Shown here one piece after another: positions 45,249 through 61,072 of a DNA stretch of 64,000 nucleotides. Below the pieces are notes generated by a model. The model was not told the origin of the DNA, made no database searches, and worked only from the letters and a program-made list of their open reading frames with translations. The stretch spans positions 11,874 to 75,873 of the forward strand of contig CAYWXG010000001.1 of the NCBI GenBank assembly GCA_964462445.1, written 5' to 3'. The translations under genes and the position numbers were made by a program. Every line of letters starts with the position of its first letter. The first letter of the stretch is position 1. Source of the DNA: an uncultured Barnesiella sp. Its GTDB lineage: Bacteria; Bacteroidota; Bacteroidia; Bacteroidales; Muribaculaceae.

Positions 45249-46370
45249 TTAGAAATGGATAGGAGTATTTGCTGCTAATGCTATAACTACATATGCCAAT
45301 GCAACCGCTACAAGGAAGAGAAGTAAATACAGCCACCACCATGAGCGTTTCTTTTCATGATATACAATTACGTAGTCATCTTCTATATCCTCTACAACCA
45401 TTTCACAATCTGAATATTGTGGCTGTTGTGCTACGTCTTTAATTTGTATCTTTAACGTGCTACCCGCTGCCAAGTCGTCTGTGCCCAAATAAATGCAACC
45501 TGAAGCGTCGGTCAATCTTCCTATTCCGACATTTCCTCTCTGCATGATATTGACTGCTCGATTGCCGATTGGCTTCCCGTCGCAACCCACAAGTTGGATT
45601 TTAACGGTCCTATCAACAACAATTTCTTCCGGTTCGTCGTCCGGCGTTGGTGGTACAGTCGGTATTGTTGGAGTTGGGATAGTAGGAGTAGGGTATTGCG
45701 GTTGCTGAGCTACTGTCAGGTCAAAAGTATATACCATTTGTCCGGGTACTACTTTTAGTGTTAACATTTTAGTGTGTGATGGTACTTCAATCAAAAGTTC
45801 ATCGCCGGGAACTAATTTACCGAAATATTTTTCCCCATTTTCGTCAAGTGTATGATTTAGGATAACTACTTTACGGTGAATCTTAATCGGAAGATTTACC
45901 ATCGGATTCCCATTCTCAATGAAGCGGGCGGTGGTGTCTTGACTTCCTGCCGGTAACACCCATGTTATATCGGTAATAGGAGCTTGTGTCGGGAAGCTAT
46001 ATCCCCATGCAGTAAGCATCACATGGTATTTCCCATCGGGAGTTATAGTGTAATAAATACTCCACTCCGATGGTATTGAGTACACAGCTTGCTTCAATTT
46101 CTCGTTTGTTCCGAGCTTCTGCATACCTATTCCCTTGATTCGCATAAACTCATTGACTACAGCCTGCTTGTCGTAGTTATCACCTTGAGAAAAACTACGC
46201 CATTCATATTCTTTGGGTAGTGTCCATTGTAAAATACCTCCAAAGCCTGCCTCCCATTTTGCAAATATTAATTCTTCAGGAGCCATTAGACGACTCATTG
46301 CGTCGTATACTTTGTCATACCCCTCTTTAATCAACGGGCGTAGTTCATTATGGTGGAATTGTACTTTCAT
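45249..46370 (-). CDS. Cluster gene 9: C-terminally tail-anchored protein, unknown function
   Basis: 373 aa with no signal peptide, a PT-rich linker (PTPTIPTPTIPTVPPTPDDEPEE), the VAQQPQY motif twice, and a single C-terminal TM (WWWLYLLLFLVAVALAYVVIALAA). Confidence 0.65.
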   Translation of the reverse strand: MKVQFHHNELRPLIKEGYDKVYDAMSRLMAPEELIFAKWEAGFGGILQWTLPKEYEWRSFSQGDNYDKQAVVNEFMRIKGIGMQKLGTNEKLKQAVYSIPSEWSIYYTITPDGKYHVMLTAWGYSFPTQAPITDITWVLPAGSQDTTARFIENGNPMVNLPIKIHRKVVILNHTLDENGEKYFGKLVPGDELLIEVPSHTKMLTLKVVPGQMVYTFDLTVAQQPQYPTPTIPTPTIPTVPPTPDDEPEEIVVDRTVKIQLVGCDGKPIGNRAVNIMQRGNVGIGRLTDASGCIYLGTDDLAAGSTLKIQIKDVAQQPQYSDCEMVVEDIEDDYVIVYHEKKRSWWWLYLLLFLVAVALAYVVIALAANTPIHF

Positions 46371-46411
46371 CGTCGGTGATGTTTATTTGGTTGTTTCTAT
46401 TTTTTAACTAT

Positions 46412-47308
46412 TTATTCTGCGCCATTGTCAGGCATCGATTCTGCAGATTCGGGGGATGGCGCTTTACCTAACATTGTTGCTATTTCGTTTCGTACTGTTT
46501 CTGTGAGGCTTCGTGGATTTTTATCCAATTCATCAACATATTTATCATAGAGTACCCCCAAATAGCGATATGATTTTATTTTACCTATCTTTGCCTCGCT
46601 TGAAGTGAGTACATTTTCAATTTCAATGGCGGAAATTTTATCCCCTTTTGGATTGTCGCGGAATTGTCCTACTGCTACATCGATATCTTGAATAATGCTT
46701 TCAAATGTTTCAACAGCTACGCGATAATTGCCTACTTTAATATACAAACTGTCAATCTGTGCTTGTTGCAAATGATTAAGGATTTTTTCTCCTTTGTCAT
46801 ACATGTCAATCAATTGATACTCAGTTGCCGAGACTAACTCCTTGCTATATTTCTTATTGTCGAATTCATTGCATTTCGCATAGTCGACAACTATTTTCAA
46901 GAAGGTGTTCAACGTGTCGGATTGCGCTTTTAGTGCCTTTGAATAAGGGCTTAGCTTCTCCAACGTTTTTGACTCTTTTGTCAACTTCTGAGTGTCAATA
47001 TGGTCAAAGTCGGCATTGTCATCCAATGTTTGCACCTTAAAACCCTGTTCGGCATAAGGCATCACTATTTGAATCACGTTTTGCAATTCGTTGTATTCGC
47101 GTTCTTGAATTCCCGCGTTGACTTTAAGGGTTTCAACCTCTTTTTTTAGACTCTCAATTTCATTATTAGCACGAGCCAACGCAATCGAATCAAGCACATG
47201 TGTATCATCTGCCGATAATGATTCCTCGGCTGATACGTTCTGACCTATCGCTGTTATTGTCAGCAACAATATTGATATTTTAGCAAATAGCGTATTCATT
47301 ATTGACAT
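46412..47308 (-). CDS. Cluster gene 8: secreted, coiled-coil-rich protein, unknown function
   Basis: Signal peptide (..LLLTITAIGQNVSA-EE). An alternative start at 47299 would give a TAATG stop-start overlap with the upstream gene. Confidence 0.65.
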   Translation of the reverse strand: MSIMNTLFAKISILLLTITAIGQNVSAEESLSADDTHVLDSIALARANNEIESLKKEVETLKVNAGIQEREYNELQNVIQIVMPYAEQGFKVQTLDDNADFDHIDTQKLTKESKTLEKLSPYSKALKAQSDTLNTFLKIVVDYAKCNEFDNKKYSKELVSATEYQLIDMYDKGEKILNHLQQAQIDSLYIKVGNYRVAVETFESIIQDIDVAVGQFRDNPKGDKISAIEIENVLTSSEAKIGKIKSYRYLGVLYDKYVDELDKNPRSLTETVRNEIATMLGKAPSPESAESMPDNGAE

Positions 47309-48189
47309 TTTTTGTTGAGATAACTCATTCTGCCAAATATCTCATGTCCGGAGTAAAGATACTTTTCATAGGCCAAATTTACTCGTATATTCGATACTCG
47401 TATCGAAAGTTTAGCCTTCTCGTCATTTATAAATGCATCGTCCCCATCTTTTGTCGGTTGCAATTGACTCAATGCAATATCGTAATATGAGCAGATTTCG
47501 TCGCCCAATTTGTTGTAGAAGGTCGAACGTGCAGTTTGTAGCTTACTTTCAGTGTTATATATCTCTTTAACCTTCGTTATGGTAGCCAATCGAGTTTGGA
47601 ATATAGGATTTGAGATAAAATCATTCTTTTGGTTATTGATACGATCTTGATGCGATGACCATGATGCCCATGTGTCGGTCACGTTATTAAATCGGGGACT
47701 TAGAGCGAATGATCTATTATTGAAAGAGACAATACGTTGATATAAAGAGTAGACATTGCTCACCTCCACAATCTGCGGCTTTTTGGCATACGATTTCTCA
47801 TTCATTATGATGCTTTGCAATCCGGCATAATTGTGCGCAAGTTTTTCATCATCGCAATTTGCACGTGCAAACTCGCGGTCCATCGCTGCAACACATTTCT
47901 TCGACGCGGTTTCATTAATTAGATTTCTTAGCGTTTTACTGTCGATCTCATCGATTACTCCGGCATTCTCACTTTGAGCTATCATTGTCAGTTGATGATT
48001 GTAGATCTCCTCGTCCCAATCGTTTAATTCGCTCCATTCCCTACTTATGTCACTTCGAAGTTGGTCATGATTGGTTGCCGACAATGCCGCAGTATTTACT
48101 ACTACCTCTTGCTTTGTTACGAAGGTAAATATTCCGAATATGATTCCGGAAAACACTGCAAATATTAATATCTTCTTTATTATTTTCAT
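47299..48189 (-). CDS. Cluster gene 7: N-terminally anchored membrane protein, unknown function
   Basis: 296 aa with a single N-terminal TM (ILIFAVFSGIIFGIFTFV). The rest is hydrophilic and helical. Confidence 0.65.
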   Translation of the reverse strand: MKIIKKILIFAVFSGIIFGIFTFVTKQEVVVNTAALSATNHDQLRSDISREWSELNDWDEEIYNHQLTMIAQSENAGVIDEIDSKTLRNLINETASKKCVAAMDREFARANCDDEKLAHNYAGLQSIIMNEKSYAKKPQIVEVSNVYSLYQRIVSFNNRSFALSPRFNNVTDTWASWSSHQDRINNQKNDFISNPIFQTRLATITKVKEIYNTESKLQTARSTFYNKLGDEICSYYDIALSQLQPTKDGDDAFINDEKAKLSIRVSNIRVNLAYEKYLYSGHEIFGRMSYLNKKCQ

Positions 48190-48240
48190 ATCTATGAACT
48201 GGATTGAGAGTATTATGTTTCGCTCAAATGCTCTATTTGA

Positions 48241-60700: not shown

Positions 60701-60971
60701 GTACTCCGGTCTCATCAAGTTCCTCACTTCCGTTTTGATGTAATGAGATATAGCCTTCGCTGCGAAGCTGCTTCACCGGTATCCAACAATTCTTATCTAT
60801 GTGATTGAATAGCAAATCAAAACTGATATGACCGTCAAAAGGATCGACTGTCTCAACAAATGAATACCGTAACATTCTTCCACTTGGGAGTGCAAACGGC
60901 TCCGACGAGTTAAATTCAAGTTCATTGGTCGTAAACTGAATGCCGGTATCAGTAATAAGGTGTAGGTCCAT
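57783..60971 (-). CDS. Cluster gene 1: giant actin/Hsp70-fold (ASKHA) ATPase-like protein (SrfB-like by recollection)
   Basis: 1062 aa with phosphate-1-like MVLDIGNSRTCG (60063-60089) and phosphate-2-like SIDIGAGTTD (59097-59120), plus VMAGRPT near the C-terminus. Confidence 0.75.
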   Translation of the reverse strand: MDLHLITDTGIQFTTNELEFNSSEPFALPSGRMLRYSFVETVDPFDGHISFDLLFNHIDKNCWIPVKQLRSEGYISLHQNGSEELDETGVPKMRDDVSTELLESYGDEDDSIININTFESYRIKNPANPIDKLPAFELLLDKWLPMPMFETDATGTTTGVPMGWCRVRIRRVGEGSVKGSSKYSFTWAFDTHLAENPLSIYFPYFFDESERKKTFALCNKPDLLFNFLSVQEDQDAISQYVASLLGVDPEKLVHHRYKFIAYYIYLINFLRLSGVSPNVTLYNPNDGDVNVDMVLDIGNSRTCGVLFEDGDFTRSVMLELRNLTSPWITYKNPFDMRLVYRRADFGNDLILPEEAFNWKSIVRVGEEARLLVYHSIEDSGIAERANSYSSPKRYLWDKKKSQARWEYLITDTDPFNVRQSPNIFLQNFTDMFDERGTFKEKADTVNIFDMMPEETDTDCHYSRSSMMTFVMVEVLQQAIAQINSPKFRTKHGKIDCRRRLRNVVITCPTAMPRAEQITLRQSMVDAQKAMLRCNPSLTPITVIPSPEALKNTDDYDMLDKRQWSYDEASACQLVYLYAEIAQRYNGKIDQFFEAKGHRRKEFIEDGYEHNSLTIGSIDIGAGTTDIMICSYKYEGEEQSSIVPVPHFYDSFYVAGDDILRTIVQRYVIEGPETGIAFMGSIHSALLARLISMSDEELRLLPCTKAKYTDVYRTYVEDIIGCQSPERREERTRYFASVLLRDFFGYDSAMMSFKDRHARVDFNTQISVPIARKMMDLLRRKFPSRVYTYDEIFGDLKPSEHLLNHFANHFGFRFEELSWRYDPEEIASMVRTTMEPLMKQLSILLYAYKCDILVMAGRPTTIDAIPELFIKYYPMSPDRIICLNDYRVGTWYPFADGQGYFYDQKSVVAVGAMVGYMASTIGFNGLRIDFKEMIRQMKPTSNFIGFYDASTQLVKKSLLFPDKSNASTTIGSFPVFLGCKQFDSALYQARPLYGIYFAGKNHEPVRITLTRSYQDDREVVEIEEVTDMQGNTLPKSTIEIVQQSIVADGKHWLDKGEFELSLR

Positions 60972-60988
60972 AATAGAAATTGATAATT

Positions 60989-61000
60989 AGGCTTAAGCCT
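60989..61000. repeat. Perfect 12-bp palindrome AGGCTTAAGCCT in the 5' leader of the nine-gene cluster
   Basis: Read directly, 18 nt upstream of the start codon at 60971. Confidence 0.5.
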
Positions 61001-61064
61001 GTTGTGGTTTTTATTTGGCATTGCCGTTAGGTTTTAATGGTAGGCTATGCCATTGTATATTCTG

Positions 61065-61072
61065 CAAATATA
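61065..61072 (-). promoter_or_regulatory. Candidate -7 box (TATATTTG on minus strand) for the nine-gene cluster
   Basis: Plus-strand CAAATATA, about 95 nt upstream of the start at 60971. Lies in an AT-rich 450-bp intergenic region. Confidence 0.3.

Follow-up and report, generated by a model that had tools for sequence, protein, structure and literature searches.

SrfABC systems are widespread, carry the labels 'virulence factor' and 'toxin', and have been without an accepted mechanism for about 25 years. In the classic system, SrfA consists of a cytoplasmic SrfA-N domain, a transmembrane (TM) helix and a periplasmic lipocalin-like SrfA-C domain with disulfides, and SrfA-N is the platform for SrfB and then SrfC in AlphaFold 3 models of Haemophilus proteins (preprint 10.64898/2026.09.18.752743). 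The accessory set of the proteobacterial srfABC loci (Lelliottia, Klebsiella, Haematospirillum) comprises genes for a vWA protein, a Sel1/TPR protein, a further vWA protein, an ABC ATPase, an FtsX permease and a SUMF1 protein. The ABC/FtsX/SUMF1 set has been equated with tagT, tagS and tagR, and is located beside ppkA and tagQ in Desulfovibrio (PMC3608642). Analysis of a window of 64,000 nucleotides (nt) from an uncultured Barnesiella sp. of the family Muribaculaceae (contig CAYWXG010000001.1, positions 11,874 to 75,873) showed the presence of an operon which, in its identity and architecture, is very probably a ten-gene Bacteroidota variant of SrfABC. SrfB and SrfC are already known families, and the ten-gene layout is a variant of a known, functionally uncharacterised system. 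The literature searched describes only proteobacterial srfABC and its 'toxin' activity; no account was found of the ten-gene Bacteroidota layout, of a split or protease-inserted SrfA, or of a DO-GTPase-like third nucleoside triphosphatase (NTPase) in Srf loci.

The core proteins and the two proteins with SrfA-type domains are encoded as follows (window coordinates; ASKHA, acetate and sugar kinase/Hsp70/actin; AF2, AlphaFold2):

57783..60971, minus strand: gene 1, SrfB, 1062 residues, cytoplasmic, predicted Hsp70/actin-fold (ASKHA) ATPase (PF07520)
54851..57769, minus strand: gene 2, SrfC, 972 residues, predicted bacterial dynamin-like GTPase with a G domain and a helical stalk (PF10139, AF2 model)
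52718..54802, minus strand: gene 3, membrane-anchored subtilase with a short cytoplasmic tail, a TM segment, an acidic linker, an S8 domain and a lipocalin-like domain (Peptidase_S8)
53195..53998, minus strand: S8 catalytic domain of gene 3, with D277, H323, N434 and S504 (Pfam and homologue alignment)
52769..53080, minus strand: SrfA-C-like domain, lipocalin-like and Cys-containing, at the C-terminus of gene 3 (hhalign against proteobacterial SrfA-C)
45249..46370, minus strand: gene 9, 373 residues, tail-anchored, with an SrfA-N-like domain (about 45975-46277), a Pro/Thr linker, a CarboxypepD_reg/prealbumin-like beta-sandwich and a C-terminal TM segment (hhalign, homologue matches)

Gene 1 matches the Pfam family PF07520 (SrfB) with an E-value of 7.2e-172 and 574 bits, at a cut-off of 27. 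The motifs DIGNS and DIGAGTTD are invariant across 27 homologues, Proteobacteria included. The SrfB profile was aligned collinearly by hhalign with the Hsp70 protein HscC over 341 columns (pairwise E 0.017), with the motif pairs ITCPTAMP/ITVPAYFN, DEASACQLVY/NEPTAASLAY, DIGAGTTD/DLGGGTFD, AGDDIL/GGDDFT and VMAGRPT/LVGGATR; the phosphate-1, connect-1, phosphate-2, adenosine and connect-2 motifs, by which ASKHA proteins are defined, are present in order.

Gene 2, which begins 13 nt after srfB, matches PF10139 (Virul_Fac, SrfC) with an E-value of 1.4e-104, and its motifs GxSQxGKS (G1), DxPG (G3) and the T of TKFN (G4) are invariant or nearly so in homologues. PF10139 is the sole Pfam match, no match to Dynamin_N being found. 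In the AF2 model of SrfC, built from a 64-sequence alignment, the mean predicted local distance difference test (pLDDT) score is 85.8 and the predicted TM-score is 0.76. All significant fold matches of this model in the Protein Data Bank (PDB), found by Foldseek, are dynamin-like: SynDLP (E 2.7e-6), IniA, CmDnm1, the Campylobacter DLP pair, Fzo1 and mitofusins. The predicted structure thereby confirmed the dynamin-like nature of SrfC at the fold level, for which no earlier paper was found. IniA and SynDLP are membrane-remodelling dynamin-like proteins. Similar to the bacterial dynamin-like proteins (SynDLP, IniA, Campylobacter DLP1/2, BDLP, DynA, LeoA), SrfC has a G domain, a long helical stalk and dynamin-like G1-G4 motifs (GxxxxGKS, DxPG, TKxx); unlike them, it is always partnered with an Hsp70-fold ATPase and SrfA domains, and lacks the Dynamin_N match. 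It also differs from the LeoA/LeoBC 'Eleos/Dynamins' defence system in that PADLOC does not detect it as such. Neither a membrane paddle nor a TM segment was identified in SrfC. Against PDB sequences, SrfB and SrfC gave nothing significant either singly or as profiles, the SrfC profile finding only the P-loop of GBP2/5 (E ~1.3, not significant). SrfB and SrfC were shown to be the constant core of Srf systems.

Gene 3 matches Pfam Peptidase_S8 (E 7.5e-42), and its TM segment is located at residues 22-40. The catalytic D, H, N and S are kept in 77-80 of 80 gene 3 homologues, and because of this conservation the subtilase is predicted to be catalytically intact and active. The best NCBIfam model for the S8 domain is mycosin (TIGR03921; E 1e-32, 113.5 bits versus a cut-off of 278.75). 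The region behind the protease domain resembles SrfA-C. For the families gathered from 79 genome loci, hhalign aligned the C-terminus of gene 3 (67 sequences) with SrfA-C at a probability of 93.4% and an E-value of 2.6e-7, and with the proteobacterial SrfAs including that of Haematospirillum at 96.2% and 2.1e-9; the SrfA-C reference set was free of Runella sequences throughout, so that the two values differ only by the added Haematospirillum SrfA. Gene 3 also matches positions 343-427 of the NCBIfam model SrfA_fam, which correspond to SrfA-C, collinearly (E 0.081), and has a weak match to Pfam Lipocalin_4 at its C-terminus (E 0.008).

The N-terminus of gene 9 (90 sequences) was aligned with SrfA-N at a probability of 94.8% (E 4.9e-8) when Runella was included, and of 91.2% (E 1e-6) with proteobacterial SrfAs only; the alignment covers the FPD...LTFWGF block. 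All ten other family-by-domain combinations, which served as negative controls, gave at most 0.3%. The N-terminus of gene 6 was considered as an SrfA-N equivalent and rejected at a probability of 0.2%. The TM segment of gene 9 comprises residues 349-367, and the family matches of its beta-sandwich come from homologues. A single SrfA protein (NF040486) upstream of srfB was not found, no open reading frame (ORF) of the window reaching the cut-off; the ORF upstream encodes a BspA-type leucine-rich repeat protein. The two SrfA domains are joined to the protease elsewhere: SrfA-N, S8 and SrfA-C are fused in one protein on a Runella plasmid and in one Muribaculaceae metagenome-assembled genome (MAG). 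The 865-residue S8 protein of Runella sp. SP2 matches NCBIfam SrfA_fam over SrfA-N and the TM segment (E 2.5e-24), and the MAG (L077:16643-19156) encodes, in addition to a normal gene 3, an 837-residue protein with SrfA-N (E 6e-42), S8 and SrfA-C (E 1.4e-19). Judging from these alignments, gene 3 is the carrier of SrfA-C and gene 9 the carrier of SrfA-N. With a protease bearing the one domain and gene 9 bearing the other, the locus appears to encode a complete but rearranged SrfABC system plus an accessory set.

In comparison with proteobacterial SrfABC (Salmonella, Xenorhabdus), SrfB and SrfC of the window are full-length matches of orthologue level with invariant NTPase motifs, the adjacency and order of srfB and srfC are kept, both SrfA domains are present in the operon, and a vWA protein also occurs in some related Bacteroidales loci. 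The differences are that SrfA is split, with SrfA-C following the S8 domain of a protease and SrfA-N belonging to a tail-anchored protein encoded at the distal end of the operon; that the order is B-C-(A-C)...(A-N) versus A-B-C; that the Sel1/TPR protein, large vWA protein, ABC ATPase, FtsX permease and SUMF1 protein are replaced by genes 4-8 and 10, with a third NTPase among them; and that the identity of the window proteins to the proteobacterial ones is 26-29% for SrfB and about 18-23% for SrfC. On a plasmid of Haematospirillum jordaniae (L097, 10976-27359), an eleven-gene block on one strand encodes vWA, SrfA, SrfB, SrfC, TPR, vWA, ABC, FtsX and SUMF1 proteins and two hypothetical proteins.

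A conservation scan, in which the gene-5 alignment was run against one genome per GTDB species, revealed 79 loci, all of them in Bacteroidales: Muribaculaceae, Barnesiella, Prevotella/Segatella copri, Alloprevotella, Paraprevotella, Bacteroidaceae, Alistipes and Coprobacter. The best gene-5 match belongs to a Muribaculaceae MAG from sheep rectum (97%). According to tblastn and iterative hidden Markov model searches, about 70 loci from species-level Bacteroidales genomes contain genes 1-10 with both order and strand conserved. In the more distant loci, identity to the window proteins is ~50% for SrfB, ~40% for SrfC and the S8 protease, ~35% for gene 5 (down to about 31% in the most distant ones) and ~22-28% for genes 4, 6, 7 and 9, while gene 8 was found there by profiles only. 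One branch of loci contains a second gene-9 paralogue and a ~620-residue beta-sandwich membrane protein, and Prevotellaceae loci contain a vWA_4 protein after gene 10. In loci of Prevotellaceae and Bacteroidaceae (L003:19523-21485, L006:19086-21779), genes for small membrane proteins of the types vWA_4, CD225/dispanin, GYF_2+CD225, DUF2752 and DUF805 come after gene 10.

Outside Bacteroidales, tblastn of SrfB against plasmids revealed an extended operon, composed of genes 1-7 and 9, on plasmid pSP2_1 of Runella sp. SP2 (Cytophagales, NZ_CP031031.1). Immediately upstream of the operon in this locus (L088, 1-13730 and 15001-33168) is a BREX-1 system (brxC, pglX, pglZ, brxL), which holds an inserted pair of AAA ATPase and restriction endonuclease. 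SrfB was absent from the phage collection; gene 5 was absent from IMG/VR and, by direct tblastn, from the plasmid collection, the Runella homologue being too divergent at that threshold. The ten genes are inherited as a block and probably act as one functional unit, since their families recur with unchanged order and orientation in about 70 Bacteroidales genomes and in Cytophagales, and since their spacing in the window is tight.

The remaining members of the operon, which form the accessory set, are as follows:

51656..52639, minus strand: gene 4, 327 residues, polytopic, with three N-terminal TM segments, a ~185-residue loop and a C-terminal TM segment (TM prediction)
49869..51584, minus strand: gene 5, 571 residues, cytoplasmic, with an all-helical N-terminal domain and a predicted TRAFAC GTPase domain (about 49920-50717) (AF2, fold search)
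48241..49833, minus strand: gene 6, 530 residues, bitopic, with a ~290-residue N-terminal domain, a TM segment and a low-complexity/helical C-terminal part (TM prediction)
47299..48189, minus strand: gene 7, 296 residues, with an N-terminal membrane anchor (TM prediction) and a Runella homologue (E 3e-6)
46412..47308, minus strand: gene 8, 298 residues, with a signal peptide, helical/coiled-coil (sequence prediction)
44955..45218, minus strand: gene 10, 87 residues, with three TM segments, DUF1294-like in homologues, 30 nt downstream of gene 9

The lineage-specific nature of this set, namely the gene 5 GTPase, four further membrane proteins (genes 4, 6, 7 and 10) and the signal-peptide protein of gene 8, was shown. 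Gene 4 has no family match; its homologues occupy 74 loci and also occur in Runella (E 5e-13). Gene 6 was found in 78 loci, with a length of 248-808 residues, and its Runella homologue has an E-value of 5e-7. The gene 8 product is presumably periplasmic, and its gene is frequently duplicated in other genomes. Gene 10 is found at the same position in 67 loci, PF06961 being matched on homologues. Genes 4, 6, 7 and 8 showed no homology to the proteobacterial accessory proteins (Sel1/TPR, vWA, small hypothetical proteins), bar one marginal match in which the gene-8 profile weakly matches a 163-residue Haematospirillum protein (E 9e-4 at Z=1e5), probably due to the coiled coil. PADLOC matched gene 6 to PD-T4-6 (E 2e-4) and gene 4 to a DRT model (E 7e-3); both matches, located in TM or linker regions, were rejected as due to low complexity or chance.

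Gene 5 encodes the third NTPase. Its AF2 model (pLDDT 87) gave fold matches to Der, EF-Tu, GIMAP2, EngB, Arf, EHD and Fzo1, and the motifs GxPxxGKT, E-M-S-G-E-E and TKxD are invariant or nearly so in homologues. Against PDB sequences, the gene-5 profile gave only weak helical-repeat noise. The Walker B motif is E375-M-S-G378, with Glu in place of Asp, and is invariant or near-invariant in 61 homologues. A Walker-B glutamate is the hallmark of DO-GTPases, which have been predicted to be conflict or membrane-stress switches (PMC7159879), and the gene 5 product is best described as a putative divergent TRAFAC GTPase similar to them. Further likenesses to the DO-GTPase systems (Kaur, Burroughs, Iyer, Aravind 2020, PMC7159879) are the membrane-proximal context, the Hsp70-family protein present in some of those systems, and the gene-5 relatives that score on the DO-GTPase Pfam models PF19993 and PF19975, some of them with TIR domains. 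In contrast to those systems, the window contains one GTPase gene and not a paralogous pair, and no variable effector was identified; gene 5 is single-copy in most loci. The partner family GAP1 was not matched by any operon protein, and a GASH protein was likewise undetected.

The gene-5 profile matched 3,059 cluster representatives. Among close relatives of gene 5 (E 1e-83 to 1e-112; P0392, P0444; L095:77-3575), an N-terminal TIR domain was found (TIR_2, E 3e-15), and P0392 directly follows the gene of an FHA+TIR protein in a two-gene arrangement; the TIR-GTPase and FHA-TIR pair looks like a conflict system. Seven loci (within L079 and L081-L087; e.g. L082:9926-11206, L086:9860-11149) contain a solo gene-5 GTPase paralogue of ~420-430 residues. 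These solo paralogues come from genomes of Bacteroides, Muribaculaceae and Barnesiella; their neighbours are not Srf genes but housekeeping genes, for UvrA, ABC-F, HAD and SurA-like proteins.

Much of this had been anticipated in the initial annotation, which was made from the letters of the window without database searches. It had likened the two giant proteins to SrfB/SrfC, to which they are now assigned by profile matches to PF07520 and PF10139, and had proposed an ASKHA ATPase for gene 1, in line with the Hsp70 signature motifs and the HscC alignment, a dynamin-like GTPase for gene 2, borne out by the fold search although the Dynamin_N profile itself has no match, a second GTPase for gene 5, in accord with the AF2 model and its TRAFAC fold matches, and an intact subtilase triad, which the Peptidase_S8 match and conserved catalytic residues uphold. 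The ASKHA, dynamin, P-loop and subtilase motifs quoted in it are all present and are invariant or near-invariant across homologues, and the TM anchors and signal peptide it claimed were recovered by topology prediction. Co-location of the genes in other genomes, which it had put forward as a check, was found in many genomes, with the same order in about 70. Its statement that the protease, the second GTPase and five membrane proteins lie outside the srfABC layout does not hold for the protease and gene 9, which bear SrfA-C and SrfA-N; the rest are indeed an added accessory set. As it had supposed, no characterised system claims the genes, according to NCBIfam, PADLOC, PHROGs and the literature: in NCBIfam and PHROGs scans of all operon proteins, the only matches were those of gene 3 to generic subtilases or proteases.

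The mechanism proposed for the system is tentative. Its functional essence, an envelope-linked complex for membrane remodelling driven by nucleoside triphosphates (NTP), is close to the plausible guess of the initial annotation, in which an NTP-powered machine anchored in the envelope serves membrane remodelling or conflict. The operon products would assemble into a single complex at the inner membrane, in whose periplasmic part the products of genes 4, 7 and 8 and the lipocalin-bearing protease would sense or process an envelope ligand or damage signal. On the cytoplasmic side, SrfA-N of gene 9 would dock SrfB and then SrfC, as modelled for classic SrfABC, and the gene-5 GTPase would be a switch gating the complex. 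The output would be NTP-driven membrane remodelling by SrfC (repair, fission or vesiculation), and the trigger would be stress or attack at the envelope, phage and contact-dependent antagonism possibly among them. The leads for this mechanism are the TagT/TagS/TagR-like genes in proteobacterial srfABC, SynDLP and IniA as the closest SrfC folds, the conflict or membrane-stress role predicted for DO-GTPases, the TIR fusions of gene-5 relatives, the BREX-1 system of Runella and the patchy distribution. Identity, architecture and mechanism taken together give the best explanation of the locus overall, with about an even chance of being right.

The TagQRST-PpkA pathway, by which envelope damage is sensed for the P. 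aeruginosa H1 type VI secretion system (T6SS), is one point of reference: proteobacterial srfABC loci contain TagT-, TagS- and TagR-like genes, and Desulfovibrio has tagQRST and ppkA, but none of these genes was found in the window or in the Bacteroidales loci, and the link is an association in distant relatives only. This comparison suggests that Srf systems may work with envelope-damage sensors. It is conceivable, although doubtful, that SrfBC-centred operons, comprising the Bacteroidota forms and the vWA/TagRST-linked proteobacterial forms, are an unrecognised class of envelope-spanning, NTP-driven surveillance machine. In such a machine, a periplasmic sensor/protease would act through SrfA domains on an Hsp70-fold ATPase, a dynamin-like GTPase and a DO-GTPase-like switch, and the membrane would be remodelled or sacrificed upon exposure to phage, T6SS or membrane-active agents; if so, the labels 'virulence factor' and 'toxin' would be misnomers.

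Several observations weigh against the assignment of the locus and the envelope-linked mechanism. The docking of SrfB and SrfC on gene 9 would be an extrapolation from the classic SrfABC model. The likeness of SrfB to Hsp70 is statistically weak, at the pairwise E-value given above, and is motif-based. The Pfam DO-GTPase matches are below the gathering score: gene 5 itself has an E-value of 0.2 with DO-GTPase2, and its best relative 2.3e-4, about 17-20 bits versus a cut-off of 27. The lipocalin-like domain is absent at 13 loci with a gene 3 of ~525 residues, and the fusion protein of L077 contains neither a TM segment nor a signal peptide, which conflicts with a topology in which SrfA-N is inside and the protease outside. 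PADLOC 2.0 found only a generic subtilase and two chance-level matches among the operon proteins. The chromosomal flanks in Bacteroidales are housekeeping genes, not defence islands, and vary between lineages; inside the Muribaculaceae/Barnesiella group they are conserved, which looks like stable vertical inheritance. The GC content of the operon resembles that of the rest of the window, and recent horizontal transfer is not supported by composition.

Three other explanations were weighed. The operon might be a dedicated anti-phage or abortive defence system, in which the DO-GTPase-like switch together with SrfB/SrfC would detect infection and the complex would kill or arrest the cell by membrane disruption or periplasmic proteolysis. 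Consistent with this are the position of the Runella plasmid operon next to BREX-1 with its embedded restriction module, the AAA_15/21 ATPase just downstream in L092/L043, the DO-GTPase features of gene 5 and the TIR-fused relatives beside an FHA-TIR gene, the patchy distribution (about 85 GTDB species genomes), and the fast evolution, variable length and duplication of genes 6-9 while the NTPases are conserved. However, the BREX adjacency is a single case, PADLOC gave no defence-family match, the chromosomal contexts are mostly housekeeping, inheritance is stable in the Muribaculaceae/Barnesiella group, no toxic effector domain (nuclease, NADase, pore former) is recognisable, and ten genes including seven envelope proteins are atypical of defence systems, so defence is an unlikely function. 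A housekeeping module of envelope biogenesis or morphogenesis (division, outer-membrane vesicle production, lipoprotein handling), unrelated to stress or conflict, would accord with the flanking housekeeping genes and with a GC content like that of the host. The part that bacterial dynamin-like proteins play in cytokinesis and vesicle release of some species (DynA/DynB, LeoABC) also counts for this explanation, as does the link of proteobacterial srfABC to Lol-like ABC modules (preprint 10.64898/2026.09.18.752743). It is nevertheless rather improbable: the system is dispensable for most Bacteroidales, being present in only about 85 species genomes among all of GTDB, no link to division, cell-wall or Lol genes was found in these loci, and the membrane partners diverge fast.

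Very improbable is a role as an exported 'SrfABC toxin' of three parts directed at host or eukaryotic cells, such as has been suggested for Xenorhabdus; the extra genes would then be an export or maturation apparatus, and the subtilase would process proteins in a new secretion machine as mycosin does. Lysates with SrfABC of Xenorhabdus have cytotoxic and insecticidal activity (PMC6950479), and vesicle-mediated export has been proposed (preprint 10.64898/2026.09.18.752743), but toxicity was seen with a distant homologue in E. coli lysates, and the hosts of the present operon are gut and rumen commensals. The several membrane proteins and NTPases resemble a secretion apparatus in outline, and the model closest to the S8 domain, mycosin, is a protease integral to the type VII secretion complex; like MycP, the gene 3 product is a subtilase held at the membrane on its extracytoplasmic side, and its gene is accompanied by others for NTPases and several membrane proteins. 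The mycosin score, however, is far below the cut-off (113 versus 279 bits), the anchor of gene 3 is N-terminal while that of MycP is C-terminal, no EccB-E, EccC or WXG100 genes are present, and the organism is Gram-negative. Moreover, SrfB, SrfC and gene 5 lack a signal peptide, a lipobox and a type IX secretion C-terminal domain, the usual export signals of Bacteroidota, and neither an outer-membrane component nor a substrate gene was recognisable.

The Bacteroidota variant shows which parts of Srf systems are constant, namely SrfB, SrfC and the two SrfA domains, and which are swappable, the vWA/ABC/SUMF1 set versus the set of protease, GTPase and membrane proteins; domain fusions link SrfA to a periplasmic protease. 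The enzymatic identities make the system experimentally approachable with respect to membrane remodelling, the envelope-damage response and phage defence, and its carriers include culturable gut organisms, such as Segatella copri and a Muribaculaceae isolate (Isolate-002, contig SCEG01000031); Bacteroides thetaiotaomicron lacks the operon. The SrfC family comprises about 1,900 or more clusters. Labels were corrected for seven 'hypothetical' gene families recurrent in gut and rumen metagenomes.

The operon consists of ten genes with tight spacing on the minus strand. The nine-gene operon of the initial annotation, at 45249-60971, stands in its ORFs and coordinates, apart from a shifted start of gene 3, but not in its gene count, the conserved tenth gene at 44955-45218 having been missed. 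The gaps along genes 1-9 are 13, 48, 78, 71, 35, 51, -10 and 41 nt, in agreement with the range of about -10 to 78 nt given there. Starts were refined by the gene calls of an identical public contig and by homologue alignments. Gene 3 most likely starts at ATG 54802 and not at GTG 54841, with 13 residues fewer, which agrees with those gene calls; its distance from gene 2 is 48 nt with the ATG start and 9 nt if the GTG start is used. Gene 2 starts at ATG 57769, while the mechanical ORF list runs on to TTG 57817. The operon ORFs are judged to be real genes and not chance ORFs, because each has same-order homologues in dozens of genomes. Three cytoplasmic NTPases (SrfB, SrfC and gene 5) are encoded, the topology being taken from predicted TM segments and signal peptides.

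The AT-rich region of 450 base pairs (bp) upstream of srfB, already noted in the initial annotation, has a GC content of 32% versus 42% in the operon. It contains the following element:

61065..61072, minus strand: Bacteroidetes-type -7 box TATATTTG, within the 450-bp AT-rich region (direct sequence reading)

No matching -33 TTTG was seen for this box, and a search for the full -33/-7 pattern gave no match there; because of this, the box is promoter-like only. Scans for sigma-70 promoters and terminators are uninformative for Bacteroidetes, and an Rfam scan of the whole window revealed no RNA family.

Downstream of the operon, an ORF of the 5'-nucleotidase/metallophosphoesterase type (43209-44948, minus strand) is separated from gene 10 by 6 nt, or by 42 nt if the public gene call is used. 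It may be co-transcribed with the operon, and is outside the conserved set, since only the closest relatives, which are Muribaculaceae, have it at this position. On the other side, directly beyond the upstream AT-rich region, a 195-residue ORF with a TTG start (61422-62009, minus strand) encodes the BspA-type leucine-rich repeat (LRR_5, E 1e-19); it may be either fragmentary or the gene of a short surface protein. Farther upstream, two long ORFs overlap on opposite strands: the one at 62324-63004 (minus strand) has no family match and is probably spurious, and the other, at 62336-63403 (plus strand), encodes a class-V aminotransferase (E 4e-36).

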